Source: Gemmatimonadota bacterium (lineage in GTDB: Bacteria > Gemmatimonadota > Gemmatimonadetes > Longimicrobiales > Gaopeijiaceae). Taken from it: a stretch of DNA of 64,000 nt. Positions 2,890-29,424 of the stretch are shown here, in pieces. The stretch covers positions 2,816,001-2,880,000 of the forward strand of contig JAXHMG010000003.1 of the NCBI GenBank assembly GCA_034521595.1. The letters are read 5' to 3'. The notes under the pieces were generated by a model. The model saw nothing but the letters and a program-made list of their open reading frames with translations. It was not told the origin of the DNA and did no database searches. Every line of letters begins with the position of its first letter. Within the stretch, counting starts at the first letter, position 1. The translations under genes were made by a program, and so were the position numbers.

Positions 2890-3597
2890 TTGACCTTGAC
2901 CCTCTCCGACGCCAAGACCTCGCACCTCGCCCCGGAAGCCCCACACGCGGAGCTTGCCCGGAGCTACCTCGAACACCTCCTGGCGGGACGCCGGACCGAG
3001 GCGGGCGACCTCGTGCTGGACGCCGTCCGCGCGGGAACCCACGTCAAACAGGTCTACCTCCACGTCTTCCAGCCCGTACAGTGGGAGATCGGTCGGCTCT
3101 GGCAGACGGACCGGATCAGCGTGGCGAAAGAGCACTTCTGCACCGCCGCCACCCAGTTGATCATCTCGCAACTCTACCCATGGGTGTTCTCGGGAGTGCG
3201 CGAACGGGGCACCATGGTCGCGACGGCCGTGCCGGGCGAGTTGCACGAGCTGGGCATCCGGATGGTCGCCGACTTCTTCGAGATGGCGGGATGGGAGACG
3301 GCCTACCTCGGCGCGAACGTTCCGGCGGACGGCGTTGCGCAAATGGTCGACGAAAAGGCGGCGGACGTGTTGGCGGTGTCCGCCTCACTCCTCGAGCACG
3401 TCGATGCGGTCCGGGAGGTCGTGGATACCGTGCGGGCGCTCCCGGGGCGCGACGACCTGATCATTCTGGTGGGCGGACACCCCTTCAACGCGGACCCCGA
3501 GCTCTGGCGAAGCCTGGGCGCCAACGGCTACGCCCACGATGCGGAGCAAGCGGTGGCACGGGCCGAGGCGATGGTGCCGGGGCGAGGTGCGTCATGA
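2890..3597 (+). CDS. Stand-alone cobalamin-binding protein (four-helix cap + Rossmann B12 domain, CarH-type, no MerR HTH)
   Basis: W-x9-EH motif (WQTDRISVAKEH), ExHxxG (GELHELG), YLGANVP, LAVSAS, ILVGG. Start uncertain (TTG 2890 chosen within ORF 2671..3597). Confidence 0.88.
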   Translation: MTLTLSDAKTSHLAPEAPHAELARSYLEHLLAGRRTEAGDLVLDAVRAGTHVKQVYLHVFQPVQWEIGRLWQTDRISVAKEHFCTAATQLIISQLYPWVFSGVRERGTMVATAVPGELHELGIRMVADFFEMAGWETAYLGANVPADGVAQMVDEKAADVLAVSASLLEHVDAVREVVDTVRALPGRDDLIILVGGHPFNADPELWRSLGANGYAHDAEQAVARAEAMVPGRGAS

Positions 3598-4517
3598 CGG
3601 ACGACGGTAAGGAAGCACCCGACTCGGACCGGTGGACGGAAGGTCTGATGCGGATCAACAACGAACAGGCGAACGAGCTTCGGGAGACACGCAGGGCTCT
3701 CGAGCGTGGCCGCGCGGGCGAGTCGATGTCGGAGGAGGCGCTATTCGACGAACTCACGCGGGTCAACAACGACTTCGCCAATCTCCAGCGAGAGCTCGTG
3801 CGCGCGAACACCCGTCTCCAACAGCTCAATGAAGAGAAGAACCGCTTCCTGGGGATGGCCGCCCACGACCTCCGGACTCCACTCGGCGTGATTTCGAGCT
3901 ATGCCGAATTCCTCGAGGAGGAGGCGACGGAACGCCTGACCGAGGAGGAGGTCCATTTCGTCCAGTTGATCCGCCGCACGGGTGATTTTCTGCTACGCAT
4001 GGTGAACGAGCTCCTGGACGTGGCGAGCATCGAAGCGGGGCGTCTCGAGCTGCGAGTGGGAGAGTCGGACCTGATGTCCCTGGTGCGGAACACCGTGCGT
4101 TTGATTTCGCCCATCGCCGCGGCGAAGTCCGTGGAGCTGAAGGTGGCGGACACGACCGAGATCGAGCCGTTCTACTTCGACCCGGACCGGGTGGAACAGG
4201 TGCTACACAACCTGCTCGGCAACGCCGTGAAGTTCTCCGAGAAGAATGACGTGGTGAATGTGCGGCTCGATCAGGACGGTGACGACGCCTGGGTGCACGT
4301 CGAGGACGAGGGCGTGGGCATCCCGGAGGATCTCCAGTCGCAACTCTTTCAGCCATTCGGCGGAGCGAGTCGCCCCGGGACGGCCGGCGAGGAAGGCACC
4401 GGGCTCGGACTCGCCATCGTTCGCCGCATCGTGGAGGCCCATGGCGGGGTCGTGCGCGTGAAGAGCCGAGTCGGAGAAGGGACGACGTTCAGCTTTTCGC
4501 TCCCCTTGGTCCGGTGA
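3594..4517 (+). CDS. Cytoplasmic histidine kinase with coiled-coil N-terminus and no sensor domain
   Basis: ATGA overlap with the upstream stop. H-box AAHDLRTPL, N-box NLLGNAVKF, DEGVGI, GTGLGL. Confidence 0.9.
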   Translation: MTDDGKEAPDSDRWTEGLMRINNEQANELRETRRALERGRAGESMSEEALFDELTRVNNDFANLQRELVRANTRLQQLNEEKNRFLGMAAHDLRTPLGVISSYAEFLEEEATERLTEEEVHFVQLIRRTGDFLLRMVNELLDVASIEAGRLELRVGESDLMSLVRNTVRLISPIAAAKSVELKVADTTEIEPFYFDPDRVEQVLHNLLGNAVKFSEKNDVVNVRLDQDGDDAWVHVEDEGVGIPEDLQSQLFQPFGGASRPGTAGEEGTGLGLAIVRRIVEAHGGVVRVKSRVGEGTTFSFSLPLVR

Positions 4518-5185
4518 TCGCGGCGCAAAGGCCCGAAGGGCGGGCCGCACGCATCCTTCTCGTCGACGACGCGCCGGACCGGGTGCTCCTGGTCTCCCGC
4601 ATCCTGAGCGAAGCCGACCACCGGGTGTGGACCGTCGGCTCGGGAGAAGCGGCCCTGGAACGTCTCGACGAGGTCGCACCCGATCTCGTGCTTCTGGATG
4701 TCGTGCTTCCCGGGATGTCCGGGCTGGCCACGTGCCGCCACATCCGGAGCTCGAGAGCGGGCCCCCGAATACGCGTCGTGCTCTTCTCGGGGCTCGCAAT
4801 CACGTCCGAGACGCAGGCCGAAGGGATCGAGGCCGGTGCCGACGGCTACCTCACGTGGCCGTTGTCCCAAAGGGAGCTTCTGGCGCGGGTCGACCTCGCG
4901 TTACGCACGACCCGCACGGATCCAACAGTGCGTCCGGAGACTCCGCCTGATTCCCCCGCGCCCCGACCTCGAACCGCCATCGGCGTCCCCATCCTCACGC
5001 CACGCCAGGAGGAAGTGGTGGCGCTCGTGGCCGCAGGGCGCACATCGGCGGAGATCGCAGCCCTGCTCGACATCGCCCCGGGCACGGTCGAGACGCATCG
5101 CAAGGCCGCCATGCGTCGCATCGGAGCACGGTCGACGGCCGAGCTCGTGCGTTACGCGCTCCTGAACGGCATCGCGCACGTTTGA
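4514..5185 (+). CDS. Response regulator, REC + LuxR-type HTH
   Basis: ILLVDD...LLDVVLPGMSG receiver and LTPRQEEV...IAPGTVETHRK HTH. GTGA overlap with the kinase stop. Confidence 0.9.
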   Translation: MIAAQRPEGRAARILLVDDAPDRVLLVSRILSEADHRVWTVGSGEAALERLDEVAPDLVLLDVVLPGMSGLATCRHIRSSRAGPRIRVVLFSGLAITSETQAEGIEAGADGYLTWPLSQRELLARVDLALRTTRTDPTVRPETPPDSPAPRPRTAIGVPILTPRQEEVVALVAAGRTSAEIAALLDIAPGTVETHRKAAMRRIGARSTAELVRYALLNGIAHV

Positions 5186-5317
5186 CAGAGCTCGGCCGAC
5201 GACCTACCCGTTTCTGGGTATAGAAGGGAGCGGCGGCATCTCGTACCTTCCGGCATGCCCGTCGGCCATGTCCCATCGAGGCACGGCCGCAGCCCCCCAG
5301 GCGAATCAGAGCGAAGC

Positions 5318-5602
5318 GTGACCACACCCACCATCGTCCTCAAGCTTTACGTGGCGGGACAGACGCCGCGAACCCGGGCGGCGCTGGAGAACCTCGAGTG
5401 TGTCTGCAAGGAAGCGCTCGAGGATCAGTGCGAGATTCAGGTTATCGACGTCCTCGAGCACCCACAGCTCGCGGAAGACGAGAAGATCTTGGCCACGCCC
5501 ACCGTGATCCGGGAACTTCCCCCACCTTTGCGGCGGGTCATCGGCGACCTCTCGGAGAAGGAAAAGGTCCTCATCGGACTCGACCTCGTCACGAAGCCAT
5601 AG
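5318..5602 (+). CDS. kaiB: Circadian clock protein KaiB
   Basis: LKLYVAG...IDVLEHPQLAEDEKILATPT...LPPPLRRVIGDLS...VLIGLDL, directly upstream of kaiC. Confidence 0.95.
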   Translation: MTTPTIVLKLYVAGQTPRTRAALENLECVCKEALEDQCEIQVIDVLEHPQLAEDEKILATPTVIRELPPPLRRVIGDLSEKEKVLIGLDLVTKP

Positions 5603-5641
5603 TAAGCCACGGTCGCGCCTCGCCCCCAACCCCAGCGCACA

Positions 5642-7150
5642 ATGCAAGACACCGGTAGCGTCGAGAAGCTACGCACCTTCGTTCCCGGCCTCGACCATGT
5701 GGCTGGAGGGGGCATTCCGGCGGGCCGCACCACGTTGGTGAGCGGCACCGCGGGAAGCGCCAAGAGCACCCTGGCAGCCCAGTTTCTCGCGGGAGGCATC
5801 CGGGAGGCAGGCGAACCGGGAGTCTTCGTGACCTTCGAGGAGCCACCCGCGGACCTCAGGCGTAACCTGATCTCTTTCGGCTGGGACGTGGCGCGCTGGG
5901 AGAACGAGGACCTCTGGGCGTTCGTCGATGCGTCCCCGGAGCCCGAGGACGATGCGGTCGAGGCCGGCTCCTACGACATGGGCGCGCTCCTGGCCAGGAT
6001 CCGGCACGCGGTCGAACGTGTCGGGGCGAAGCGGGTGAGCATCGATTCCATCGGGGCCGTGTTCACCCAGTTCGAAGACAGCGCTACGGTGCGTAGGGAG
6101 TTGTTTCGGATCTCCGCAGCGCTCAAGCGGATGGAGCTCACGGCCATCCTCACGTCCGAGCGCTCCGAGGAGTACGGCTCGATCTCACGCTACGGTGTGG
6201 AGGAGTTCGTCGCCGACAACGTGATCGTCCTCCGCAACGCCCTCGCCCTCGACCGAAGGCGCCGCACGCTCGAGATCCTGAAGTTCCGTGGCACGACGCA
6301 TTACAAGGGTGAGATCCCGTTCACGGTCGTCGGAGAGAGAGGCGTCGTCGTGATCCCGCTCTCCGCCCTCGAGCTCACCCACCGCTCGACGTCGACCCGG
6401 ACTCCATCCGGCAGTCCAGACCTGGACACGATGTGCGGCGGCGGGTTTTTCCGTGACTCGATGATCCTGGTGTCGGGCGCGACCGGGACGGGAAAGACAC
6501 TGCTCGCGACTGAGTTCATCGAGGGTGGCGTGGAGGAGGACGAGCGCTGCCTACTGTTCGGATTCGAGGAGAGCCCGGACCAACTCCGGAGGAACGCCTC
6601 CGGGTGGGGCGTCGATTTCGCGAGCATGGAGCAGGACGGGCTCCTGCGCCTCGAGTGCCGTTATCCGGAGACCGCCGGACTGGAGGACCATCTGATCGCC
6701 ATTCGCGAGGCCGTGGAAGACTTCAAGCCCGCGCGCGTCGCCGTGGACAGCCTGTCCGCGCTCGAGCGTGTCTCGACGGAGCGCGCGTTCCGCGAGTTCA
6801 TCATCGCCCTGACGTCCTTCCTGAAGAGCCAGAACGTGACGGGATTGTTCACCGCGACCTCCCCTAATCTGCTCGGGGGATCGTCGGTGACCGAAGCCCA
6901 CATCTCGACCATCACCGACTCCATCATCCTGCTCCGCTACGTCGAGTCGTACGGTGCGATCAAGAGGGGGCTGGCCGTGCTCAAGATGCGCGGCTCGCCT
7001 CACGACCATAATATACGTGAATTCATGATCGACGGAGCAGGCATGCACATCGGAGACTCGTTCCAGCACGTGACCGGCCTTCTGGCCGGCCACCCCGAAT
7101 ACGGGGCCCCGAACGACTCCGGAGCGCCGGGGCCCCGCCCAACCTCGTGA
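5642..7150 (+). CDS. kaiC: Circadian clock protein KaiC (double RecA-like ATPase)
   Basis: Two P-loops (GTAGSAKS, GATGTGKT), TFEE and FEES catalytic glutamates, HISTITD phosphosite motif, KMRG. Confidence 0.95.
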   Translation: MQDTGSVEKLRTFVPGLDHVAGGGIPAGRTTLVSGTAGSAKSTLAAQFLAGGIREAGEPGVFVTFEEPPADLRRNLISFGWDVARWENEDLWAFVDASPEPEDDAVEAGSYDMGALLARIRHAVERVGAKRVSIDSIGAVFTQFEDSATVRRELFRISAALKRMELTAILTSERSEEYGSISRYGVEEFVADNVIVLRNALALDRRRRTLEILKFRGTTHYKGEIPFTVVGERGVVVIPLSALELTHRSTSTRTPSGSPDLDTMCGGGFFRDSMILVSGATGTGKTLLATEFIEGGVEEDERCLLFGFEESPDQLRRNASGWGVDFASMEQDGLLRLECRYPETAGLEDHLIAIREAVEDFKPARVAVDSLSALERVSTERAFREFIIALTSFLKSQNVTGLFTATSPNLLGGSSVTEAHISTITDSIILLRYVESYGAIKRGLAVLKMRGSPHDHNIREFMIDGAGMHIGDSFQHVTGLLAGHPEYGAPNDSGAPGPRPTS

Positions 7151-7164
7151 GATAGACGATACTC

Positions 7165-9408
7165 GTGCAGCCCACGGACACACCCGCCGGAAGACAGCCT
7201 GCCGAAGGCGCCGCGCGCATCCTCGTGGCCGACGATCGTGCCCCCACGCGAGAAGCCGCGATGCGGATCCTCTCGAAGGCTGGATTCGACGTGCGTGGCG
7301 CCGAAGACGGACCCGGTGCCCTCGAGAGCATCGAGTCGTGGGGTCCGGACCTGGTCCTGCTCGACGTCGTCATGCCGGGTATGGACGGCCTCGAGGTACT
7401 CGAGCGAGTACGGGCACGGTTCGAGTTCGCGGATACCGTGATGGTGCTTCTCAGCTCCTTTCGTCTGAGCCCCGAGGACCAGGCGAAAGGGCTCGAAGCC
7501 GGCGCTGACGGCTACATCGCACGACCCGTAGATCATCAGGAGCTGCTGGCACGGGTACGTACGCACCTCCGTACCCAGCAGCTGGCACGCGAGCTGAGGG
7601 CGAGCGAGCAACGCTTCCGGGACCTCCTCGACAACCAGCCCGATGGCGTGTTGGTCGTGGACGAAGCCGGGATCATCCAGTTCGCGAACCCGGCAGCCGA
7701 GAAGCTGCTGAGTCGGCCGGCACGCGAGCTCATCGGCACGGACTTCGGCTTCCCCCTCACGGCGGGCGCCGAGACGGAGCTCGATCTCACGTCCTCCGAG
7801 GGCACCCGGGTGGTCGCCATGCGCGTCGGCGACACCACCTGGGACGGGCGAGCGGCCTGGCTCACGACGCTGCGCGACGAGACCCAGCGCCAGGCCGCGG
7901 CGGAACGCATGGCCGAACAAGCGGAGCTGCTCGACCGCGCTCAGGACGCCATCTTCACCTTGAACCTCGACGGGACCATCCGGTTCTGGAACGAGGGCGC
8001 ACAGCACCTCTACGGGTGGCCTCCCGACGAAGTGGAGGGCCAGTCCGTGCATACCCTGCTCTTCCCGAGCCCACAGGAAGGGGAGGTCATCATGGCTCAG
8101 GTGCTGGAGCAGACGGACTGGCGGGGAGAGATGGAGCAGTGTCGTCGTAATGGGAGCACCGTCACGGTCGAGGGCCGATGGTCCGTGGTCCCCGACGAGA
8201 ACGGCGAACCGGCGCGTATCCTGTGCGTGAACACGGATGTGACGGAACAGAAGGAGCTCCTGAGCCAGTTTCTGCGAGCGCAGCGGATGGAAAGCGTGGG
8301 GAGGCTCGCCGGCGGGATCGCCCACGATTTGAACAACGTTCTGGCCCCCATCTTGATGTCCATCGAGATGCTCCAGGAGGACACGGTCGACCCCGAGACG
8401 CTCGAGATCCTCGCCACGGTCCAGGAGAGCGCCCAGCGGGGCGCCGACCTCGTCAAGCAGGTCTTGCTCTTCTCCCGGGGCGTGGGAGGGGCCCGCATCG
8501 CCGTGGACGTGGCCAAAACGCTACAGGACCTCGGAAGGGTGGTCCGAGACACCTTCCCGAAGACCATCCAGCTCGAGTCCCGCATTCCGGACGACCTCTG
8601 GAAGATCAAGGGCGACCCCACGCAGATCCATCAGGTCTTCATGAACCTGTTCGTGAACGCACGGGACGCCATGCCGCAAGGAGGCCGGCTTCGCTTGGAA
8701 GCGGCCAACATGACGCTCGACGAACAGTACATGGCCATGATTGGCGAGGCCACCGCCGGGCCGCATGTCCGGGTCACGATCACCGACACCGGCGTCGGAA
8801 TGAGCGCGGAAGTGCTCGAGATGGCCTTCGAGCCCTTCTTCACCACGAAGGAAGTGGGGAGCGGAACGGGCCTCGGCCTGTCGACGGTCGCGGCCATCAT
8901 CAAGTCCCACGGGGGACTCATGAACCTCTCGTCGGAGCCCCGGAAAGGGACAACCTTCCAGGTTTTCCTCCCCGCCGAGCAGAGTGAAGCGACGGTCGAG
9001 CCCGCGAGCCCTCCGGTCGAGCGCCTCCTGGGATGCGGCGAGCTCATCCTCGTCGTTGATGACGAACGCTCCATCCGAAGCATCACGCAGCAGACGCTCG
9101 AAGCGTTCGGTTACAGAGCCGTCACGGCGTTGGACGGCGCCGACGCACTGGCCGTCTACGGCATGCGCGGCCAGGAGATCTCGGCAGTGCTCGTGGACAT
9201 GATGATGCCCGTCATGGACGGGACGACCACCATCCGGGCGTTGCGCCGGATCGATCCGGACGTCCCGATCCTCGCATCGAGCGGCGTGGCCGAACACAGT
9301 GAGGTTGCACGCATGGATGAGCTCGCTGTCGGCTACTTCCTTTCGAAACCCTACACTGCGACGGATCTGCTCACGGCGCTCAAGGAAGTGCTGCCGGACG
9401 CAGAATGA
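7165..9408 (+). CDS. Hybrid histidine kinase REC-PAS-PAS-HisKA-HATPase-REC
   Basis: N- and C-terminal receivers, [9 protein letters not shown] H-box, [18 protein letters not shown]...GTGLGL. Starts 14 nt after kaiC. Confidence 0.92.
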   Translation: [747 protein letters not shown]

Positions 9409-9420
9409 ATCGATGTGTGG

Positions 9421-10707
9421 TCAGCCGGTAACGCGGCCTCCGACCTGCTCGGCGGACCACTCGAGCAGCTCGTGCACTGCCTCGACCCACGCGTCGGAGA
9501 AACGTTCGCTGTCCGTAAACCAGGCCTGTACGGAATCGAGCGCCCCAACCACACCCCCGCGGTCGTCCGCCACGGCGGCGGCGAGCACCGTCCCCGCGCC
9601 GGGAATGCGGCCGCGCTCATTTTCGGGAAGACTCCGCGTGAAATGTTCGTCGGCCACGGCGAGCCCGTCGTCATCCATGAACCGGGTCCGCATGTCCCGC
9701 AGCGTCTTGGCGGCCGAGGCGAGCGAGGCGTAGCGACCGGGAGTCGCCGTGGAAACGTGCGCGACCAACTCATCGTGGAGCAGCTGCAGATGGCGCTCCA
9801 GGAGGAGTAGCGGCATGCCTCTCGCGGCCAACACGTGCCCGAGCCAGAGCACCCGCTCGATCGCCCTCGACTCGGGGATCCGGGCCAGCGTCACGAGCCA
9901 CGCGCTGTCGCTGCGAGTGAACGCGAGCCCTCGGTCGCCGTATCGCGCCGCGTAGTACGGGAACGCGTCCCATGACCGCTCGCCCGCCCGCAACGCGACG
10001 TCCAGCTCGTCGTCCTCGACCGTCACGCGATGTGTGCCGGCCTCCGGGTTCAGCTCGAGAGCGGGAACCCACGCCGTCGTATCCGGAACCGGATGGATTA
10101 CGCTCATGACCGCCTCGATGCCCTCGAAGACCACGAGCGCCGCTTCGCCCGCTTCCTGACGCTCCCCTTCCGAGACGGACGTACCGTCGAGCCGCTCCAC
10201 GAAGCGAGCCCATTCGGGGCTCGCCTCCTCCTCTCGGCCGAAAAAGAACGTCAAGTCCCGCTTGTTGTAGGCGCCCGGACCGCGAACCATGCCCTGACCC
10301 AGAAGTCTCCCTCCGAGAAGGGACCCTCGAAACGTATAGAGGCAGCCGAGCAGACCCCCCGCCCGAGCCGGATCCATGCGGCGGATGCGATGCGCCAGCA
10401 GGTGCGCCCGGACCTCCGCGAGCGAACAGGTTTGCGGTCCCTCCGAGCCGAGCGTCTCCAGGTCACGGGCGGCCAGTTCGGAACGCGACAGGGAGGCCTG
10501 CTTGAACGGCTCGATGCGCGGATCCGTCGCCGCTTCGAGGAGCTCTTCGAAGCTCCGCCAGATCGTGCGCATGGCACGTAGATAGGTCACCAGCGCATCG
10601 GCCGGAAGCGTCCCCTCTCGCAACGCCGTAGCGGAAGGAAGCGCATCGAGGCGCTCATGTGTCTCACGCGTCTCGGACTTGAGCCGATCTCTGAGGCCAG
10701 ATGTCAT
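9421..10707 (-). CDS. Heme oxygenase-like (biliverdin-producing family) domain fused to a C-terminal helical globin/phycobilin-like domain
   Basis: LRDRLKSETRETHERLD (proximal His helix) and YTFRGSLLGG distal helix. C-terminal half contains RYGDRGLAFTRSD...VLAARGMP. ATG 10707 with AAGGA upstream. Confidence 0.75.
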   Translation of the reverse strand: MTSGLRDRLKSETRETHERLDALPSATALREGTLPADALVTYLRAMRTIWRSFEELLEAATDPRIEPFKQASLSRSELAARDLETLGSEGPQTCSLAEVRAHLLAHRIRRMDPARAGGLLGCLYTFRGSLLGGRLLGQGMVRGPGAYNKRDLTFFFGREEEASPEWARFVERLDGTSVSEGERQEAGEAALVVFEGIEAVMSVIHPVPDTTAWVPALELNPEAGTHRVTVEDDELDVALRAGERSWDAFPYYAARYGDRGLAFTRSDSAWLVTLARIPESRAIERVLWLGHVLAARGMPLLLLERHLQLLHDELVAHVSTATPGRYASLASAAKTLRDMRTRFMDDDGLAVADEHFTRSLPENERGRIPGAGTVLAAAVADDRGGVVGALDSVQAWFTDSERFSDAWVEAVHELLEWSAEQVGGRVTG

Positions 10708-10859
10708 GGGTCCTTCAACAGGGGTTCCGCCAGAACAGCGGTCTTCGGTACCGTGCAGCCGCGACATCATGATGTCAACGCAAACCGACTCGACACGCAA
10801 CGGGAGGCAAGTGAAGCGGGATGGGAGAAGGCACGGGGGACGGAGGATAGCGAGCGATC

Positions 10860-10880
10860 GCGCAACACAATACATTGCGC
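10860..10880 (+). promoter_or_regulatory. Inverted repeat GCGCAA-N9-TTGCGC, probable antitoxin operator
   Basis: Perfect 6-bp inverted repeat with AT-rich spacer about 30 nt upstream of the Xre/MbcA antitoxin start. Confidence 0.45.
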
Positions 10881-10911
10881 CACTGACTTCGTCCTACCCG
10901 AGGAGGAGCCC

Positions 10912-11271
10912 ATGCCCGCCGTTCCCGACATCCAGCCCCTCGAAACCCGGACCGCGTCCCACCTCGACACCCTGCGGCACATCTTGGGCTCCGACCGCGC
11001 CATCGCCGAGTTGCTGGAGGTGTCGCCGTCGCAGGTGTCGCGGTGGCGACGGGGGCAGGTGCCGGACGACGAGAACGCCGACCGGCTCGGCGGCCTCGCG
11101 CTCGTGGTGGAGATGCTCGCGCGGTGGCTCCACCCGGACACCATCGAAGGGTGGCTTCACGGCCCGCACCTCCATTTGAACGACCGAACCCCGGCTCATC
11201 TGCTTCGCCAGGGCCGGGTGGCGGACGTGATCGGCGCGCTCGAAGCCGAAAAGGCCGGCGTCTTCGGTTGA
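10912..11271 (+). CDS. Xre/MbcA/ParS-type antitoxin
   Basis: HTH (AIAELLEVSPSQVSRW) and C-terminal WLHGPHLHLNDRTPAHLL. AGGAGGAG RBS; upstream of a RES gene. Confidence 0.85.
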   Translation: MPAVPDIQPLETRTASHLDTLRHILGSDRAIAELLEVSPSQVSRWRRGQVPDDENADRLGGLALVVEMLARWLHPDTIEGWLHGPHLHLNDRTPAHLLRQGRVADVIGALEAEKAGVFG

Positions 11272-11281
11272 GCGCCCGCAC

Positions 11282-11887
11282 GTGAGCGCCCGCACGCTCT
11301 GGCGGGTCTTTCCCTGGGACGAGCGCGCATCCGAAGGAGACCGGTTCTCCCCTTCCTTCGTCCCCCCGCCGACCGGGCGAGGCCGGTTCGACCTGCCCCA
11401 CGACATCTCGCGGGTCCTCTACCTGGCCGAGAGCCCCGAGCACGCGGTCGCCGAGCTCCTGCACCCCTGGCGGGGCCGGAGCGTGGATGCTCGCCACCTG
11501 GTGCGCGCCGGACGCCCGCTGGCCGCGGTAGAAGTGCAGGTGGACGAGGACCGGAGCGGGACGAAAGTGGCCGACCTCTGCGAGCCCGACGTCCTCGTCG
11601 CGCTCGACGTCGCGCCCGACCGGACCGCCTCGAGGCACCGCACGCTCACCCAACCGATCGCACGCACCGTCTGGGACGCGGGGTTCGCGGGCCTGCGGTG
11701 GTGGTCGCGCTTCTGGGGCGACTGGCACACGACCGTGCTCTTCACCGCCCGGCTGGAGGAGGGAGTGGCGGAGCGCGGAGGCGGGGTCGCGCGCCCGCTC
11801 AGCTTCGGGACCCCCGAGCCGCTCACCCCCACATCGCCCGCCGTCGCCGAAGCGGCGCGGGCGTTGGGGATCGCGGTCGAGGGCTGA
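11282..11887 (+). CDS. RES-domain toxin
   Basis: LWRV...GRFD...LYLAES...AVAE...GLRWWS, with R, E and S residues present; paired with the antitoxin. Confidence 0.85.
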   Translation: MSARTLWRVFPWDERASEGDRFSPSFVPPPTGRGRFDLPHDISRVLYLAESPEHAVAELLHPWRGRSVDARHLVRAGRPLAAVEVQVDEDRSGTKVADLCEPDVLVALDVAPDRTASRHRTLTQPIARTVWDAGFAGLRWWSRFWGDWHTTVLFTARLEEGVAERGGGVARPLSFGTPEPLTPTSPAVAEAARALGIAVEG

Positions 11888-11993
11888 GTCGGCCCCGACA
11901 GGGGGCGCCGCCTTGCCCGCCGGCCGAAGCACCCATATCCTCGCATGCGCCTCCCCCACCAATATCGTACCTGTCCCCTCCGGGAGGTCCCGC

Positions 11994-12554
11994 ATGGCTG
12001 TTCGTTTTGCGTCCGACGACCCCGGCGCGCTCGAGACCGTTCTCTCGATTCTGCCGCAGTTGATCCTCATCGTCGACGAGGAGCTGACCCTCCGCTACAT
12101 GAACCGGCCGCAAGGCGGATATCGGCCGGACCAGGTGGTCGGCATGAGCATCTTCGAGGTCGTCGACCCGGAGTATCGCGACGAGGTGCGCAGCCTCCTC
12201 GAGGGTGTGTTCGCTTCCGGGGAGCCCGCGGTCTACGAGGTCGCGGCGCTCAATGCCCAGGGCGAGCGGCAGTGGCACGAAGGTGTCATGCTGCATCTTC
12301 CCGGTGAGGACATGGAGCCCACGGTCGTCATCTCCACGACGAACGTGACGGAGCGGCGGCAACTCCAAGAGGAGGCGGCGACGCTGCGGTCCCTCATCCC
12401 CCTGTGCTCCTGGTGCAAGCGGGTCCGTACGGACAGCGGCTACTGGGCGACCGTGGAATCCTACCTCGAACGGGCCGGGAAGTCCCGGGTCACCCACAGC
12501 CTCTGCACGACCTGCGAGGCCACCATGCTCGACGCGGCGTCCGGGGATCGCTGA
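11994..12554 (+). CDS. PAS domain protein with C-terminal four-cysteine motif
   Basis: PAS fold (ILIVDEELTLRYMN...VVGMSIFEVV), coiled linker, IPLCSWCKRVR...YW...THSLCTTC. GGAGG RBS. Confidence 0.8.
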   Translation: MAVRFASDDPGALETVLSILPQLILIVDEELTLRYMNRPQGGYRPDQVVGMSIFEVVDPEYRDEVRSLLEGVFASGEPAVYEVAALNAQGERQWHEGVMLHLPGEDMEPTVVISTTNVTERRQLQEEAATLRSLIPLCSWCKRVRTDSGYWATVESYLERAGKSRVTHSLCTTCEATMLDAASGDR

Positions 12555-12677
12555 GGGGGCCGAACGGGCCGGCCCGACCCGTAGAGGATCCCGTAAGGGG
12601 TGACTCGGCTGAGCCCCACGGGCAGTGGTGGGTGATGTTCGACGGATGACCACTGAATGGTGGTCGACGGAAAGGCT

Positions 12678-13100
12678 TCAGTCGGTGGAAGAAGCGAGCG
12701 TGGCCAAGAGTTGCTTGGGTGTCACGACGGGGATCGAGGAGGACTGGAAATCGGACGGGTTCCGAGTCACGAGGTAGTCCGCGCTCGCGCGCTGAGCGGA
12801 TACACCCTGAACCGCGTCCTCGACGTCGCCCCAGCCCAGGGAGAGTGCCCGAAGGAGGACGTCCTGATCCAGGGGCGTCACCGTGACGTGATCTAGAAGG
12901 TCGATGAGAGCCGCCACAGCGCGTTTGTGACCGAGATGCTTGGAGGCGAGGTAGTAGAGCGTCGTCACCGAGTGGGCCGCGACAAGCCCTTCGACCTCGA
13001 TGCCGTCCAGGAGGGAGAGCACGGTCGCGGAATCCTCCACCCACGGCTCCCGAGCCGCCAGGACATCGAGGATGACGTTGATGTCCAGGAAGAGGCGCAT
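12678..13100 (-). CDS. PIN-domain (VapC-like) toxin
   Basis: MRLFLDINVILDVL...DVEDAVQ...LVTRNPSDF. TGATG overlap with the upstream antitoxin. Confidence 0.88.
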   Translation of the reverse strand: MRLFLDINVILDVLAAREPWVEDSATVLSLLDGIEVEGLVAAHSVTTLYYLASKHLGHKRAVAALIDLLDHVTVTPLDQDVLLRALSLGWGDVEDAVQGVSAQRASADYLVTRNPSDFQSSSIPVVTPKQLLATLASSTD

Positions 13101-13339
13101 CAGGAATGCTTCTGCTCGAGGTGGCGCCGGTAGTCTTCCACGGACGTATCGCTCGGCAGGATGCCGCGAAGCCGCCGCACCCACGGAGCCAATGTCGGCT
13201 CGGATGGAGCGTCGAGTTGGCGCAGGTAGGAGGTGACGAGTTGGGAAATGCTCGTGTTGTGCCGAGTGCTGTAGCGGCGGGCCCGTTCGATCACCTGCTC
13301 ATCGACGCTGAGAGTGAGCTTTTTCTTGGAAGTCATCAT
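13100..13339 (-). CDS. DUF6364-family ribbon-helix-helix antitoxin
   Basis: KLTLSVDEQVIERARRYS...SISQLV...VRRLRGIL...YRRHLEQK; coupled to the PIN gene. Confidence 0.8.
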   Translation of the reverse strand: MMTSKKKLTLSVDEQVIERARRYSTRHNTSISQLVTSYLRQLDAPSEPTLAPWVRRLRGILPSDTSVEDYRRHLEQKHS

Positions 13340-13354
13340 CACTCCGCCGGAGTC

Positions 13355-16127: not shown

Positions 16128-16237
16128 CGGACTCTACGAGAGTGTCAAATTCTCAACCGTTGGTTTTGTCCAAGGGCAAACCGGTGATGGCAGAAGCGGG
16201 ATGTGCCGGCGTTCCGTCGCGCGGATGGAGCGAAGGA

Positions 16238-19200
16238 GCTTCAATGAGGCCGCGCCCCGAAGGACGCGGAAGGCCGGAAGACCTTCAAGCGTGGCGTGAA
16301 GCGCCAGCACTCGCTTCAATGAGGCCGCGCCCCGAAGGACGCGGAAGGCCACGGCACGCCGTACTGATCCGTGCACCAGAGATCGCTTCAATGAGGCCGC
16401 GCCCCGAAGGACGCGGAAGGACTCGAGATAGCGACCCCGATGGCTCGAGATTTCAGCATGCTTCACGAGCCGCGCCCCGAAGGACGCGGAAGGCGGAGAC
16501 CTCCGCAGTCGGCCAGCTATCCTCGTGCTTCAATGAGGCCGCGCCCCCGAAGGACGCGGAAGGCGCAAGCGACGCACTGCGCCGAAGCTCGGATGGACTC
16601 GGGCCTGCTTCCAGTGAGGCCGCGCCCCGAAGGACGCGGAAGGCTCGAGGGCGGTCAGGCTGAACGCAAGCCGCTAGAGCGCGTACGGCGCATGCTCTCG
16701 ACGAAGGCCGCAGCCCCGAAGCCGAGGCGCGCGAAGGACGCGCGGTACAAGGCCGCTCGGATCGCGCGCCTGGCGTCTGTGTCGATAGCTTCAATGAGGC
16801 CGCGCCCCGAAGGACGCGGAAGGACCTGAACGACGGCGAGACGCGTGCCTCACGTCGTGCCGAGCTTCAATGAGGCCGCGCCCGAAGGACGCGGAAGGGA
16901 GGACAGCACGCTCCACTCGGGGCGCGGAGATCTGCGCGGCTTCAATGAGGCCGCGCCCCGAAGGACGCGGAAGGGCGCACGGTTTCGATGGCGACCGGAT
17001 GAATGACCTATCGCGCTTCAGATGAGGCCGCGCCCCGAAGGACGCGGAAGGGTGGGGCTCGAAGCAGCCCGATGCCATGCTTCGATCGCCCGCGCTTCAA
17101 TGAGGCCGCGCCCCGAAGGACGCGGAAGGTGCTCCGGGCGATCGTCATGCGACGCACCTCGCAGTGCCTCGCGCTTCAATGAGGCCGCGCCCCGAAGGAC
17201 GCGGAAGGGTCAGCGAGCGACGGCGTCGACCACGATGTTCGAGCACGTCGCTTCAATGAGGCCGCGCCCCGAAGGACGCGGAAGGAGGCGTCGCGTGCCG
17301 TAGCGCGCGGACGGAGTCGAGCAGCTGAGCGGGCTTCAATGAGGCCGCGCCCCGAAGGACGCGGAAGGGGCTGTCAGTCCGAGCATCATCGCGCTCGCAG
17401 GTCGTCGCTTCAATGAGGCCGCGCCCCGAAGGACGCGGAAGGAGTCATCGACCGGCTCGACGACTGCATGATGTGCGACAGCAGCTTCAATGAGGCCGCG
17501 CCCCGAAGGACGCGGAAGGGCGCTCGACCTATGCCAGCCCGACGGCGACGCTCGAGGCTTCAATGAGGCCGCGCCCCGAAGGACGCGGAAGGCGGAGGGA
17601 TGCGGACGCGAATCGGCGGCACGTGCGGCGCGGCTTCAATGAGGCCGCGCCCCGAAGGACGCGGAAGGCGGCGCTCGAGTTCCGACGCGCGAATCGTCGA
17701 CCGCAGCGCTTCAATGAGGCCGCGCCCCGAAGGACGCGGAAGGGCGAGGCCATGGCCTCCGGATGTCGTAGGACAGCTCCGCACGCTTCAATGAGGCCGC
17801 GCCCCGAAGGACGCGGAAGGGATGCGCGCACCGGATGTAGCCGGATCCGGCGCACGCTCGGCACAGCTTCAATGAGGCCGCGCCCCGAAGGACGCGGAAG
17901 GAGCGCGTAGACGACCACGCACGCGACGGCTACCGAACCGCGCTTCAATGAGGCCGCGCCCCGAAGGACGCGGAAGGGGGACGAGTTGCCGCTGGTCGCG
18001 CGACTAAGTCCATCGAGCTGCTTCATGGAGGCCGCGCCCCGAAGGACGCGGAAGGGAGCCTCGGTCGCGACGGTCGACGGACAGCGCGGCATGCGCTTCA
18101 ATGAGGCCGCGCCCCGAAGGACGCGGAAGGAGCCGAGCTCGACCGACCGCGGTCAACTCGCGCCGAGCGCTTCAATGAGGCCGCGCCCCGAAGGACGCGG
18201 AAGGGCGCCGAGCTCTCGGACGCGCTGGCATGCGGCAGTCGACTGCTTCAATGAGGCCGCGCCCCGAAGGACGCGGAAGGCGCGGCACGCACGGACCAGT
18301 ACACTCGCACCGCGCGCTTCAATGAGGCCGCGCCCCGAAGGACGCGGAAGGGCGCGAGCGACGTGCCGCACGACGCTCGAGCATCCGGCACTCGCTTCAA
18401 TGAGGCCGCGCCCCGAAGGACGCGGAAGGTCCACCCGTCCGCTGATCGGCAGATCGTCATTCTGTCGCTTCAATGAGGCCGCGCCCCGAAGGACGCGGAA
18501 GGGCGAGTCTGCGCCGGTCGACGCTGACTTGTCGACTGCTTCAATGAGGCCGCGCCCCGAAGGACGCGGAAGGCGTCGGAGCGCCGTCCGAGTACGCTGG
18601 AAACGCTGTGGCTTCGATGAGGCCGCGCCCCGAAGGACGCGGAAGGACGAGGAAGACGTGACCGAGCGGCCGTCAGACAAGCGCTTCAATGAGGCCGCGC
18701 CCCGAAGGACGCGGAAGGGTCGCTGGGCTTTCGGACGTGTCGATCGGATCGGCTTCGCGGGCTTCAATGAGGCCGCGCCCCGAAGGACGCGGAAGGGCCT
18801 GGCCGGTCGAGCCGATGCGTCTCAGCGACACGGTCAGGGCTTCAATGAGGCCGCGCCCCGAAGGACGCGGAAGGAGGACCACCCGCTCGGCGCATGCTCG
18901 TACGCGTCTCGAGGCTTCGATGAGGCCGCGCCCCGAAGGACGCGGAAGGCGACGAGCCGTCGCGATGATCTCGATGCGATCAGTACGTGCTTCAATGAGG
19001 CCGCGCCCCGAAGGACGCGGAAGGGAGCTCGAGCTCATCGGCTGTCGGCGCCGAGTCGGCCGCGCTTCAATGAGGCCGCGCCCGAAGGACGCGGAAGGCA
19101 CAGTGCGCGCGGCGACGAAGACGGTCGAGCAATCGCATGCTTCAATGAGGCCGCGCCCCGAAGGACGCGGAAGGGCGGCTGGACGTCGACGAGTCTGGCA

Positions 19201-19849
19201 CGTCCACGGCGCGCTTCGATGAGGCCGCGCCCCGAAGGACGCGGAAGGGCGAGGTCGACGACCGTGCGTGGACCACGACGCTGGTCACGTCGCTTCAATG
19301 AGGCCGCGCCCCGAAGGACGCGGAAGGCGACGCGGTCAGCGAGCTCGACGAGGACAGCCGATGAGTGCTTCAATGAGGCCGCGCCCCGAAGGACGCGGAA
19401 GGACGCGGTGGCGTCCGGTCTCGACCGGACCAACCCGACGCTTCAATGAGGCCGCGCCCCGAAGGACGCGGAAGGGTCGGACTCGGCCGCGCGTCGACGG
19501 AACGCGGTCGCGGCGCTTCAATGAGGCCGCGCCCCGAAGGACGCGGAAGGGGCCGACGCGGCGATGTGGCGTGCTCGCTGACGTCGCTCGGGCTTCAATG
19601 AGGCCGCGCCCCGAAGGACGCGGAAGGAGCATGGCGATGGTCGCGAGCGCGGAGCGACCGACAGAGTGCTTCAATGAGGCCGCGCCCCGAAGGACGCGGA
19701 AGGGATAGGACGCACGGGATCGGCCATCCGATCGCGCCGCTTCAATGAGGCCGCGCCCCGAAGGACGCGGAAGGGCTGGCACCGTGCCGTGGCCGTCCGT
19801 GCGTGGTCGAGTGGCTTCAATGAGGCCGCGCCCCGAAGGACGCGGAAGG
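16238..19849 (-). CRISPR. CRISPR array, about 48 repeats (one heavily degenerate) and 47 spacers; 36-nt repeat CCTTCCGCGTCCTTCGGGGCGCGGCCTCATTGAAGC in transcribed orientation
   Basis: GCTTCAATGAGGCCGCGCCCCGAAGGACGCGGAAGG recurs on + from 16238 to 19849. Minus-strand transcription is supported by the ATTGAAGC 3' end, a stem that pairs fully only on minus, degenerate repeats at the left end and the leader at the right. Confidence 0.98.
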
Positions 19850-20022
19850 GGCACCGGTGGCAAGTGCCCTGATGCCACAATGCTGGACGCCACCATGCGA
19901 GCGCCGCAGCCAGATGACAACCGGGGGACCGTGTCACTCCGTCCAGCACTACACATAAACCGTTGTTGTCAAACAACTCCGAACGCTTCCCGTGATCCGG
20001 GGATCACTCAGCCGCTCGCGAA
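19850..20022 (-). promoter_or_regulatory. CRISPR leader
   Basis: Non-coding, relatively AT-rich, between the cas2 stop and the first intact repeat. Confidence 0.75.
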
Positions 20023-20322
20023 TCATACGATATGCGAGCGAATGGCGGGCTCGTAACTCCGTCCTACGATCTCGAGGTGGTTCTCGAGCGGCCGATGTGC
20101 CCGGCCAAGATCCAGGATCATCACCTGATCTTCATCCTCCTGGATTGCCTGACGGAGCTCGATTCGCATTCGAATCAGCTCACGGTCGGTCAGTTCACAT
20201 AGAAATACGCTGAACTGCGCCCAGTCCCCGAACCCGTGCAGTTCGTTGAAAACTTTGTCTCGCCGCTTGTCGTCCGAGACATCGTAGGCCACGAGGTATC
20301 GGCGGCGTCGTGTCTCCGTCAT
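20023..20322 (-). CDS. cas2: CRISPR-associated Cas2
   Basis: YLVAYDVSDDKRR...GDWAQFSVF; 99 aa, after cas1. Confidence 0.95.
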   Translation of the reverse strand: MTETRRRRYLVAYDVSDDKRRDKVFNELHGFGDWAQFSVFLCELTDRELIRMRIELRQAIQEDEDQVMILDLGRAHRPLENHLEIVGRSYEPAIRSHIV

Positions 20323-22043
20323 CGCGTCGTCATCGGAGGATAGGCAGGGATGTCACCTCTGAGCCAGCGGCTGAGGAGGCGTGCCTGCACACGTATCACG
20401 GATCGCCAGGAGCAGCGGTATCCGAACAGGGGATGGGTGACGAGCTGATCCAAACGCGCCTCATAGGCTCGCAGAAAGGCCTTTCGGCCCTTGGGCCCAA
20501 GCATGCAGCTGGCCTGCGACCGCTTGAAATTGCGCTTGGTCACCATGGCCGTGTTGATCGCGGTGAGGACGGCGCTGTCTACCACCAGGGGACGAAACTC
20601 TTCCATCAGATCGAGGGCGAGTGCCGGTCGACCGTGTCTCGGTTGATGGAAGAGCCCCCACCATGGGTCGAGCCCTTCCGCCATGAGGGCCACCGTACAC
20701 TCCTTCGCGAGGATGGCGTAACCGAAGGAAAGGAGGGCATTGACAGGATCACGAGGCGGACGGCGGTTGCGCCCGTCGAAATCCCACTCGCTCTCGAAAT
20801 CACGGGGCCTGAGCGCCCCTCCGAACGCCCTGAAATAGTGCGAAGCCAAGCCACCTTCGAGCCCGAGCAACTCTCCGATGGACTGTGCATGCGGAACCTT
20901 CTTCAGAAGCGCCTGCATCGCGGCTCCGACGTCTTTCGGACGTGGCCTTACATTGCGACCGATGAGGGTCCGCTGATTCGCCCCCTTTGCCTCGACGATC
21001 CGCCTGGCGAACGCGAGGCAGCGCTCTGGATCCCCTGCGGCTCCGAACTGGGCCTGCCGATCGAAGGCGTTTCGCAAGCCCATGCCGTGTGTAACCCCGT
21101 AGAACCAATGTCCAGTGGAGAAATGGACGATGGGGATCGACGCCTCGCAGAGCAGGTGAATGGCTTGGGCGGATACCGAGACATTGCCGAGGATCACCAG
21201 TTGGCTCACGTCCTTGAGCCGCGCGCGGCCGAGTTCCGCGCCGCTCCGCTTCACGACGAGCACTTTTTTGCTCTTACCGACCTTGGCTCCCTGTTCCTGC
21301 ACATAGAACGGCAGCGCTTCATCCCGTGACGGATACAAGCGCCGTACGGGCGGGTGTGTATCCGTCGGACCCGCGTGCTCGCCCGTCGGGATGGCTTTGA
21401 GGACCAGAGTCTCATCGGGCAGGCAGATCCCACTCAAGGAGCAACCGCGGCACTTTGGGCTGTCATCGAGAGGAGGGGGGATAGTGGTCGATCGCTGAGC
21501 TGCATGCGCCTTCTCGACGAGTTCCTGCGTCCGATTCTCGAGCGCAGCATCGAACGGAACGTCTACCCTGGTCCGCGAGGCGGCGAAGTACAGCACGCCA
21601 TGATCACTCCGATACCCGTGCTCGCGCAGCAATAATCCCTGCGCCATCAGTTGTACCCGCTCGGGCTCCCAGCTCCGCTCAGGGGTATCGGGAACACGGC
21701 CCCGTTTCGTTTCTACGGGAACCGCCTCCTCCCCGGCCGTGGAAACCAGATCGAGCTTGGCCGTTAGCCCGAGAGCTTCAGACCCGAGACTCACCGAGCG
21801 AGCGATCTCGGGCCGTTGGTCCTCTTCGTCCGCCGCCTCCCCGTCACCCGACGTCTCCGCCGAAGGGTCAGGAAGAACGTGGTCGAGGCGGTCGACCCTA
21901 CGATGCACCTCCCGACCTTCTTCGGTGAAGCGATTGTCGTCCCAGCGCCCCTCGACGTGCATCAGGTGAAATAGGCGGGGGCAGTACGCATACTCGTTGA
22001 GCATACGCACAGGAAGGAGGTGACGCGGACCGCCGTGACTCAC
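20319..22043 (-). CDS. cas4-cas1: Cas4-Cas1 fusion
   Basis: YAYCPR...PVETKRG...PKCRGCSLSGIC (Cas4, four Cys), then LLGLEG...RNRRPPRDPVNALLSFGY...LDLMEEFRP (Cas1). Confidence 0.95.
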   Translation of the reverse strand: MSHGGPRHLLPVRMLNEYAYCPRLFHLMHVEGRWDDNRFTEEGREVHRRVDRLDHVLPDPSAETSGDGEAADEEDQRPEIARSVSLGSEALGLTAKLDLVSTAGEEAVPVETKRGRVPDTPERSWEPERVQLMAQGLLLREHGYRSDHGVLYFAASRTRVDVPFDAALENRTQELVEKAHAAQRSTTIPPPLDDSPKCRGCSLSGICLPDETLVLKAIPTGEHAGPTDTHPPVRRLYPSRDEALPFYVQEQGAKVGKSKKVLVVKRSGAELGRARLKDVSQLVILGNVSVSAQAIHLLCEASIPIVHFSTGHWFYGVTHGMGLRNAFDRQAQFGAAGDPERCLAFARRIVEAKGANQRTLIGRNVRPRPKDVGAAMQALLKKVPHAQSIGELLGLEGGLASHYFRAFGGALRPRDFESEWDFDGRNRRPPRDPVNALLSFGYAILAKECTVALMAEGLDPWWGLFHQPRHGRPALALDLMEEFRPLVVDSAVLTAINTAMVTKRNFKRSQASCMLGPKGRKAFLRAYEARLDQLVTHPLFGYRCSWRSVIRVQARLLSRWLRGDIPAYPPMTTR

Positions 22044-22047
22044 GGCT

Positions 22048-23580
22048 CTACACCGCGCTCTTGAACGTTCCGAGCCCAAAGTGGCAGCCGAATCCCAACG
22101 CGAGCGGGCCGCGCACGGGCTCGGGAAAGGTGAGGTGCCAGAAGCTCCCCCCGGTGTCCGGTTGGACGCTCCTCCGTCGCTTCCCGCGACTTCGGAATCG
22201 GTAGAAGTGAACGGGACGCCGTTCGCGGCCCTTCACAGTCACGCTCTCCCGGGGCTCGACCACCGGTTCCGGCATGCCGCGTAGACGGCACTCTCGGCGA
22301 ATCTGTTCCGCCACACCGAGATTCTTCTTCCGAAACCACGGGTGCAGGTACGGCGTCACCGACACCCATTCTGTCGCATGGGCCAAGAGGTGCCGGTCCG
22401 CGAAGTCGTCGAGTGTGCCATGCCGCTCGAAGGTCACGGCCCATTCCTCTCCCCCGCTCAACCAGATGCGATCCAGGCCCACGAGCGCGTCTAACGCGTG
22501 CTCGTCCAAGCCGCCTGCAGCATGAACAACGACGTGATCGACGTGCCCGTCTCCGTCCATGTCTTCGGGAAGATAGAACGCGTGCTGGTGCCGATTGTCG
22601 TCACCCATGTCGTGACCGGAGAGGATCGGCGGGACGTCGCCATCGGCCTCCGAGATACGGTCGGCCTTCGCCATGGCCGCCCTGCGCACCACCTCGCCCA
22701 CTTTGATCGCGTCCTCGATGCGGGGAAGTGGCTTGCCGGCAAGAATCAGGCGTACCGTTGTAGTGCGCTCGGCCGGACGCTTCTTCCACAAGAACGAGGA
22801 GCGAGCTCCGAAAGCGTCAGCGGGGCGAACGTAATCCGCGTTCGCGACGCCCGGGTGTCGACTCCATCCCTGGGCACGGACATCTCCGGTGTCGAGCCGA
22901 AGCGCGTCGATGAAGCGTTCAGGCAAGGTCGCCAAGAGACGCTTTTGTCTAACGCCCAGCCGCCCTTCGTCGAGTCCCAGGGAGGCCACCTGGTCATCGC
23001 GCCACGCCTCGTACTGGTCGGGAGATACGGGTGTCGCGACCGATACGACCTCACTCTCGACCGTGTCGGCGAACGCGCTCGCATCATCGAGTGGAGCACA
23101 GTTCGGCACGCCCTCCCACCCCTCGAGCAACCGTGCTTCGACCCAGCTTTCAGCTCGCCCCAGGTATCCGAGGCGGTCGAGGAGCAGGGCGAGATGGGTT
23201 CGCTGGCCAGCGTCCAGGGACAAATCCGGCCAGTGCATCACCACATCCTCGTTCCGAGGAACACTGGCGAACGCGTCGAAAACCAGCGTCGTCTTTTCGC
23301 CGCGTCCTTCCCGGATGGGCATGTAATGTCGGGTGTGTGCAGACGACGCAGGGGGAAGAGCGAATCTCGGCTCCCGGGCTGCCAGGGCGGTCACCAACCG
23401 TTCGAGGTCGGCCTCGGAGATCTCGTCGGAATCAACCTTTCTGTGCCAGATCGCCACGAGCGTACGAAGCACTCGCCACGGCGACGGAGGCCACTCCACG
23501 GCAGCTTCGTTCACATGGGTCCCCCACGGCGTCGCATGGTATCGTCCGGCGAGAAAGCGGAACGCGATGGCCGTGCTCAC
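22048..23580 (-). CDS. csb2: Type I-G Csb2 (Cas5/Cas6 fusion)
   Basis: GRYHATPWG...EWPPSPWR...YLGRAESWV and C-terminal GPLALGFGCHFGLG glycine-rich loop. Confidence 0.92.
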   Translation of the reverse strand: MSTAIAFRFLAGRYHATPWGTHVNEAAVEWPPSPWRVLRTLVAIWHRKVDSDEISEADLERLVTALAAREPRFALPPASSAHTRHYMPIREGRGEKTTLVFDAFASVPRNEDVVMHWPDLSLDAGQRTHLALLLDRLGYLGRAESWVEARLLEGWEGVPNCAPLDDASAFADTVESEVVSVATPVSPDQYEAWRDDQVASLGLDEGRLGVRQKRLLATLPERFIDALRLDTGDVRAQGWSRHPGVANADYVRPADAFGARSSFLWKKRPAERTTTVRLILAGKPLPRIEDAIKVGEVVRRAAMAKADRISEADGDVPPILSGHDMGDDNRHQHAFYLPEDMDGDGHVDHVVVHAAGGLDEHALDALVGLDRIWLSGGEEWAVTFERHGTLDDFADRHLLAHATEWVSVTPYLHPWFRKKNLGVAEQIRRECRLRGMPEPVVEPRESVTVKGRERRPVHFYRFRSRGKRRRSVQPDTGGSFWHLTFPEPVRGPLALGFGCHFGLGTFKSAV

Positions 23581-23590
23581 GGCTACCCTC

Positions 23591-26806
<3,216 letters not shown>

Positions 26807-26814
<8 letters not shown>

Positions 26815-29236: not shown

Positions 29237-29424
29237 CGAACGACCTCGCCTGAGTCGAATGAATGCGGTGGATCGAGGGTTGCCGAAGTTTAGAGTTGGG
29301 GTATGACAACCGTGACGCTCGCGCAATGTATGGGTACGGATAAGCCGCGCGCGAGCCGCGGTTCGCACCCACCGTCCACTGCGTCAACAACGTCCCCATT
29401 ACGCACGGCCCCCTCCCCCCACGC

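Follow-up and report, generated by a model that had tools for sequence, protein, structure and literature searches.

A putative cobalamin photosensor-kinase module beside kai genes in two bacterial phyla

Can a cobalamin-dependent photosensor pass light information to the Kai proteins encoded directly downstream of it? The question is raised by seven genes within a 64,000-nucleotide (nt) stretch of contig JAXHMG010000003.1 from a Gemmatimonadota genome (GCA_034521595.1), hereafter the window, where genes for a cobalamin (B12)-binding protein, a histidine kinase and a LuxR-type regulator precede kaiB, kaiC and a hybrid kinase. Overall, two phyla were seen to have a putative B12 photosensor-kinase module next to kai genes. 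In the window, the probable adenosylcobalamin (AdoCbl) sensor, the kinase, the regulator, the KaiB/KaiC3-type pair and the output kinase may form a functionally linked signalling run, a reading to which we assign a probability of roughly one half. The genome containing the window (G000) was 93% complete; loci used for comparison are designated by L-numbers, and "same-order" and "same-family" refer to the taxonomy of this genome. The seven genes are:

2890..3597, + strand, cobalamin-binding protein of 235 amino acids (aa) with a TTG start and the Pfam domains B12-binding_2 and B12-binding (PF02607 and PF02310)
3594..4517, + strand, histidine kinase with HisKA and HATPase domains (Pfam)
4514..5185, + strand, response regulator with a receiver and a LuxR helix-turn-helix domain (Pfam REC and GerE)
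5318..5602, + strand, kaiB (PF07689, 94.6 bits), with an alternative start at 5255
5642..7150, + strand, kaiC, KaiC3-type, 502 aa, above both NCBIfam kaiC cut-offs
7165..9408, + strand, hybrid kinase REC-PAS-PAS-HisKA-HATPase-REC (Pfam), the probable output
9421..10707, - strand, convergent heme oxygenase-photoglobin fusion of 428 aa (structure model and fold matches)

Open reading frames (ORFs) and domain annotations confirmed the arrangement given in a preliminary description of this DNA, namely a co-directional run closed by a convergent fusion 12 nt away. Overlaps of 4 nt occurred at both junctions within the first three genes, the gaps after the receiver-LuxR gene measured, in order, 132, 39, 14 and 12 nt, and all six co-directional frames were intact. 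The absence of kaiA, phytochrome and MerR from the window, also part of that description, held: genome searches with positive controls detected neither KaiA nor a phytochrome PHY domain in G000, and Pfam found no MerR domain among the 60 window ORFs, no genome-wide MerR search having been made. A multi-PAS histidine kinase gene (window 1-~2730, minus strand), which runs past the window start, diverges from the B12 gene with about 160 nt between them, and the two may have a common promoter region.

The frame of the B12 gene is open from 2671, so that the start at 2890 is a choice and the protein length is uncertain. According to Pfam, the product possessed only B12 domains, with neither a DNA-binding domain nor a globin, and it scored 63.8 with the CarH model, against a cut-off of 400. 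Its signature was complete (G68xxW71, E81H82, G116xxH119 and G141xxxP145); the corresponding four motifs, GxxW, EH, GxxH and GxxxP, are described in PMC11796333 as the signature of light-responsive cobalamin domains, and exemplar proteins bearing them proved photoactive. The closest solved structure in a Protein Data Bank (PDB) search was that of the photocobilin SasPcob (8J2W, E 8e-20). These sequence features point to a stand-alone AdoCbl photoreceptor of the CarH/photocobilin type, an assignment that we regard as probable and that agrees with the one originally proposed. A protein signalling cobalamin supply, heme or redox state to the kinase, instead of light, would be in line with weak matches to the AppA SCHIC domain (Pfam, below cut-off) and to AerR (PDB search, E 2e-6), with a host in which no reaction-centre gene was found, and with members of the associated kinase family named from Syntrophaceae, Anaerolineae and Bacteroidales, which are largely anaerobic groups. 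All four light-response motifs are nevertheless present, motif-bearing exemplars are photoactive and the family accompanies photoglobins, which makes a purely non-light signal very improbable.

Fused globin-B12 forms were present in L061, L117 and L110, and the N-terminal globin-like part of the L061 protein had no match in G000. In L128, as in the window, the B12 protein has no globin and the photoglobin is encoded separately, so the B12 form of the window need not be a product of decay. The interpretation of the globin-less B12 protein and of the short kinase described below as decay products was weakened, since both forms recur elsewhere. Two Azospirillum plasmids (L110:8599-10893 and L111), whose hosts are cultured, possessed the B12 sensor and the kinase and no kai genes.

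The histidine kinase encoded next (His91) had at its N-terminus a helical extension of the sort usual in kinases adjoining this B12 family, and a kinase of this type accompanied the B12 protein in 15 of the 16 close B12 loci (B12 protein at least 45% identical, 4.7-20.6 kb of DNA each). At least 458 relatives belonged to the kinase family; among the 119 listed, 17 were ≤320 aa long, some of them possibly fragments, and 97 were ≥380 aa long, the window kinase being a short form without the N-terminal domain of about 100 aa usual in the family. Complex prediction with two copies of the kinase N-terminal part and the B12 protein gave scores of 0.09, 0.55 and 0.28 (mark 0.32). The acceptor Asp motif was intact in the receiver-LuxR protein, as in the receivers of the alphaproteobacterial loci described hereafter. 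By analogy with SasPcob and CarH, the AdoCbl-bound B12 protein would be a dimer in the dark and would split upon photolysis by light. The near-constant pairing and the overlap of the two genes suggest that it would switch the kinase, and the gene order that the kinase would phosphorylate the receiver encoded next.

A fuller cassette was retrieved from Alphaproteobacteria, mostly through scans with a heme oxygenase-photoglobin alignment (37 loci in genomes and 40 in metagenomes, the latter often short). L059, L061 and L064 possessed, with 68-69% identity, genes for the B12 sensor, the kinase, a stand-alone photoglobin, a receiver protein, KaiB and KaiC. L095 and L100 showed the same order as far as the contig edge, and L128, retrieved with KaiC from the family to which L061's genome belongs, showed it with one extra kinase inserted, giving four complete and two partial loci. 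The L059 B12 gene and the L064 kaiC each matched in two pieces, owing to a frameshift or an assembly error. The window KaiB was 53-64% identical to the KaiB of these loci.

In five of them (L059, L061, L064, L095 and L128), the gene before kaiB encoded a receiver with a KaiA-like C-terminal domain. Foldseek ranks 1 to 10 for the model of this domain were all KaiA, but with E > 0.04, and a second fold search likewise put KaiA first, 1R5Q giving Z 10.1 (root-mean-square deviation, rmsd, 2.5; 90 aligned). Atlas leads were RsbU_N/KaiA, below 0.9; a sequence-profile search of the PDB returned no KaiA, and a plasmid search gave no match. The domain family comprised 1382 clusters, and a KaiA-like gene directly preceded kaiB-kaiC in 16 of 30 loci of another phylum (19 of 251 genomes). 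The cultured species Rhodovastum atsumiense is among the named sources of proteins of this family and of the kinase family. From fold and synteny, and not from comparison with Sll0485, the receiver-KaiA-like protein is read here as a putative KaiA3. No KaiA3-like domain was found in G000 with a 150-relative profile, which did match 8 of the comparison loci, nor in any of 201 sampled genomes of the window's order. By gene order, the receiver-LuxR gene of the window occupies the slot held by the receiver-KaiA3 gene in the fuller cassette. The label "KaiA-less" is therefore appropriate for the window genome, which lacks both KaiA and KaiA3, but not for the recurring cassette.

Other KaiA3-like genes were seen beside kinases. 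Those of a second class adjoined a kinase, with no kaiBC in the DNA examined (L132-L135, L143, L149-L151, L155 and L157), and in L155 and L157 a B12-binding gene converged on the KaiA3-like gene and kinase pair. Further candidate KaiA3 kinases were PAS kinases encoded directly before kaiA3 (L112:12029-13267, L113:6582-8123, L129:7719-9323 and L130:10568-11773). That these four are LOV kinases was rejected, as they carry no copy of what we take to be the LOV cysteine motif.

The window KaiC possessed a Ser-Thr phosphosite pair (HISTITD), the CI Walker A motif GTAGSAKS and no long C-terminal tail. It scored 668 bits to 8ZN5, 572 to the S. elongatus-type KaiC and 316 to the R. sphaeroides type (8DB3/8DBA); the code 8ZN5 occurs once in a study solving reconstructed ancestral KaiCs (PMC12081879). 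KaiC3 is defined by Ser-Thr sites, the lack of a long tail and a closer relationship to KaiC1 than to KaiC2 (10.1101/700500; PMC10076222). Given its Ser-Thr sites and the absence of a tail, the window KaiC is KaiC3-type by these published criteria, on which the label rests, the KaiC trees (a quick tree and FastTree) holding no named KaiC3 sequence. In a 44-row quick tree, it was sister to two kaiA3-linked KaiCs (support 97) and fell within a group of 23 rows (support 83), in which each of the remaining 22 had an upstream KaiA-like gene. FastTree kept the sister pairing and lost the larger group, and a 17-row tree left the position without resolution. Grouping with the cassette KaiCs was compatible with the data (approximately unbiased test, p-AU 0.32), and grouping with the three closest same-order KaiCs was rejected (p-AU 0.017; group chosen after seeing the trees).

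In nine same-order genomes (L021-L029), a KaiA-less kaiB-kaiC pair, with KaiC 55-63% identical to that of the window, was followed by a PAS kinase. The first PAS of the window hybrid kinase recurred after kaiC in all nine loci, which suggests that output would pass through this kinase. In one of these genomes, a PduO gene lay 2.7 kb from kaiB, probably by chance, with no B12 sensor nearby (L023:13636-14187). The same-family locus L117 encoded a fused globin-B12 protein, a kinase, KaiB and a hybrid kinase, and no KaiC; over the part compared, the window hybrid kinase was 49% identical to the kinase following its kaiB. A lone divergent KaiB-like gene (32% identical) beside a receiver-PAS kinase, distant from kaiC in G000 (C3:153242-155519, minus strand), recalls the kaiC-less kaiB-kinase pair of L117, and KaiB might act on PAS kinases without KaiC.

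The preliminary description had seen in the window a KaiA-less KaiBC hourglass, reset daily by B12 photolysis acting directly, with a bilin widening the colour range. A genome without KaiA or KaiA3, intact KaiC motifs, and sensor and bilin genes on either side of kaiBC all fit such a timer. The hourglass was, however, demonstrated for R. sphaeroides KaiC2, with its tail of about 50 aa and its resetting by ATP/ADP, according to PMC10076222, whereas the window KaiC is tail-less, stands far nearer to the KaiC1 type than to KaiC2 (572 vs 316 bits) and has its nearest relatives next to a KaiA3 gene. Moreover, the KaiC3 rhythms described in PMC12081879 and PMC11372060 require KaiA3, and without KaiA3 there is no evident physical path from the sensor to KaiC. 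The hourglass model was thus not sustained, and we consider it unlikely.

In the fuller cassette, the receiver and the KaiA3-like domain form one protein; light could there target the clock activator, and a direct action on KaiC through this protein is plausible. The window receiver is instead fused to a LuxR-type DNA-binding domain, in a genome devoid of KaiA, so that light would most likely reach KaiBC indirectly, by transcription or phosphorelay; KaiBC would then be a light-gated switch feeding the hybrid kinase and not a free-running clock. On a broader view, put forward tentatively, the kinase of the B12/bilin sensor would be a cognate kinase of KaiA3, allowing a photoreceptor to set a Kai clock directly through phosphorylation of the clock activator. 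Two phyla would have brought the module and kai genes together independently, and the window would be a rewired case, with a transcription factor in the place of KaiA3 and a KaiA-free KaiBC gated by light in a non-phototroph.

The structure model of the convergent fusion (predicted local distance difference test, pLDDT, 92) matched HmuO over residues 4-206 (Z 23.8, rmsd 2.1, 200 aligned) and the SasPcob globin (8J2W_B) over residues 229-342 (Z 11.1, rmsd 2.5, 108 aligned). The globin half also matched allophycocyanin with Z 10.2, the fold being helical and Z therefore middling, and a PDB sequence search with this half returned nothing relevant, its likeness being visible by fold alone. Asp267, invariant in all 37 relatives, may be the counterpart of the bilin-binding Asp270 of SasPcob, judging from aligned ranges and not from a residue-level alignment. 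The heme oxygenase half retained His17, presumably the proximal His, as well as Gly128 and Gly132, which we take to be the distal glycines; biliverdin formation by it is putative. The gene had been described as a heme oxygenase-globin fusion, which these fold matches bear out. In what is the weakest step of the proposed scheme, the fusion may serve both as a source of biliverdin and as the bilin-binding partner of a B12 protein that has no globin of its own, conferring red sensitivity.

Fusions of this kind are already catalogued in PMC8717448. The nearest relatives of the heme oxygenase fusion came from Gemmatimonadota, to which a protein encoded in a same-family locus is also assigned by its source, in line with a host from this phylum. 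The window photoglobin was separate in the tree from the stand-alone photoglobins of the alphaproteobacterial cassette. Own-lineage fusions had varied neighbours, and such fusions abutted a B12 gene in L039, L071, L076, L077 and L081. The association of the fusion with the kai run is not conserved, and the fusion is no constant component of the recurring cassette.

Several observations weigh against a functional link between the sensor module and kaiBC. The 132-nt gap separates the receiver-LuxR gene from kaiB; as no sigma-70-type promoter was found at the locus and terminator-like sites numbered 6 (3.7 ± 1.9 in shuffles), a single transcript across this gap is only putative. Four of the 16 close B12 loci had kaiBC, one had kaiA3 at the contig end, one had kaiB alone and ten had no kai gene in the DNA examined, and among the 33 close KaiC loci (KaiC at least 54% identical), four had a B12 gene, one a photoglobin only and 28 neither; L001-L020 and L032, which are short or duplicate views, were excluded from these counts. 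Five of the six alphaproteobacterial loci came from the photoglobin scan and probably represent one lineage. KaiC was not found in any of six genomes of the window's genus, and a genome search with a positive control detected no reaction-centre gene in G000. The window kinase was sister to the same-family L159 kinase (support 99), from a genome with no KaiC match, and its grouping with the kai-linked alphaproteobacterial kinases was rejected (p-AU 0.0008); the same test for the B12 protein was not significant (p-AU 0.11). Finally, the fusion grouped with seven own-lineage or metagenome copies (support 98), none near B12 or kai genes, and carried Arg in place of Glu127, present in 27 of the 37 family members.

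Sampling from either side gave a similar picture. In KaiC- or KaiA3-first samples, the pairing was seen in 0 of 9 loci of the window's own order, 0 of 3 of the alphaproteobacterial class (centre excluded) and 0 of 16 of the other phylum, and in 2 of 2 from L061's family (centre excluded). In B12-first samples, no kaiC was found in four same-family loci that had the kinase, nor in any of six third-phylum loci. The co-occurrence anticipated in the preliminary description thus stood in part: B12 sensor, kinase, photoglobin, kaiB and kaiC do recur together in the alphaproteobacterial loci, but most of the modules occur apart.

These data could also be explained by unlinked neighbours: a region rich in signalling genes would have collected a mobile unit of B12 sensor, kinase and regulator, a second unit of kaiBC and kinase, and a heme oxygenase fusion, with the sensor controlling the LuxR regulator only and with kaiBC, its KaiA3 lost, acting alone or decaying. 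The differing tree placements of kinase, photoglobin and KaiC, the B12-free kaiB-kaiC-PAS kinase arrangement in all nine same-order loci, the B12-first loci without kaiC, the fairly long end branch of the window KaiC (0.41-0.51) and the presence of kaiB without kaiC in L117 are all in its favour. Yet these three modules are found together in a second phylum as well, L117 has kaiB after the sensor-kinase module, and none of the six co-directional frames is disrupted, the gaps between them being short. The modules are also rare: 4 of 351 class-sample genomes had a close KaiC, and 7 of 231 family genomes had a close B12 protein. We hold a chance gathering to be a serious, though somewhat unlikely, explanation.

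Descent of the window as a whole copy of the alphaproteobacterial operon was rejected by the kinase and photoglobin trees, in which the kinase and the heme oxygenase fusion group with kai-less own-lineage copies. Either native parts came together independently in the window, or the run goes back to an old operon from which kai genes were lost repeatedly. Independent assembly would speak for a functional pairing, yet two or three cases leave room for chance in signalling-rich regions.

Two toxin-antitoxin-like pairs adjoin the locus (window 10657-13342; Xre/MbcA-like with RES, and DUF6364 with PIN; Pfam), which is consistent with a plastic region. A CRISPR array with over 40 repeats, accompanied by cas2, a cas4-cas1 fusion, a GSU0053-type gene and cas3 (window ~16230-29368), belongs to a system that we take to be type I-U/I-G. 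The PduO adenosyltransferase gene noted earlier at 52066 was present (Pfam), but it is not specific evidence for chromophore supply, lying 41 kb from the locus in a genome encoding other B12-binding proteins. The BtuB search gave 28 TonB-receptor matches with none above the cut-off, B12 uptake by the genome being therefore only putative. A photolyase search of the genome gave a single weak match, below the cut-off, and a rhodopsin search gave no match, the positive controls giving none either.

Both modules are known already, and their coupling is not described in the literature searched, in which no title or abstract opening linked kai genes with a sensor of the B12 or photoglobin kind (mostly without subscription papers) and no paper among those listed combined "photocobilin" and "kaiC". 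The word "kinase" is absent from the main text of PMC10979010, "kai" and "circadian" from that of PMC8717448, "kai" from PMC11796333, and "cobalamin" and "B12" from PMC11372060. The available accounts describe Kai timers as reset via metabolism (ATP/ADP, quinones), and PMC11372060 states that the KaiA3 receiver could take its signal from a cognate kinase not yet identified. With its gene lying shortly before kaiA3, the kinase of the putative B12 photoreceptor is a concrete candidate for direct light input to this clock type, testable with five or six soluble proteins and in its most testable form in the full alphaproteobacterial cassette rather than in the window. If true, a photocobilin-type sensor acting via a kinase would go beyond what the photocobilin paper covers; should the link not hold, this would be an ordinary mosaic locus made of known modules.

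Among known systems, CarH/LitR shares with the window B12 protein the four-helix cap and Rossmann B12 domain, W-x9-EH and the lower His, but possesses a MerR DNA-binding domain that the window protein lacks. Photocobilins (SasPcob, 8J2W), as described in PMC10979010 and PMC8717448, share the B12 signature, the bilin-type globin with its conserved Asp and adjoining two-component genes; they combine B12 and globin domains in one chain, whereas the window has separate, convergent genes and, as presumed output, a separate kinase. The R. sphaeroides KaiBC hourglass (PMC10076222) likewise couples KaiB and KaiC without KaiA in a non-cyanobacterium, but with a KaiC2 that has a coiled-coil tail of about 50 aa and Ser-Ser sites, unlike the tail-less, Ser-Thr, KaiC3-type protein of the window, and it is reset by ATP/ADP and operates in a phototroph, whereas the window genome yielded no reaction-centre gene. 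The KaiA3-KaiB3-KaiC3 system of Synechocystis PCC 6803, according to PMC11372060, shares the KaiC3-type ATPase with Ser-Thr sites and the kaiB-kaiC order, and in related loci kaiB is preceded by a gene for a receiver-KaiA-like protein. The window differs by a receiver-LuxR gene in the kaiA3 slot and no KaiA3 in the genome, and the related cassette loci add to this system a B12 sensor, a kinase and a photoglobin.

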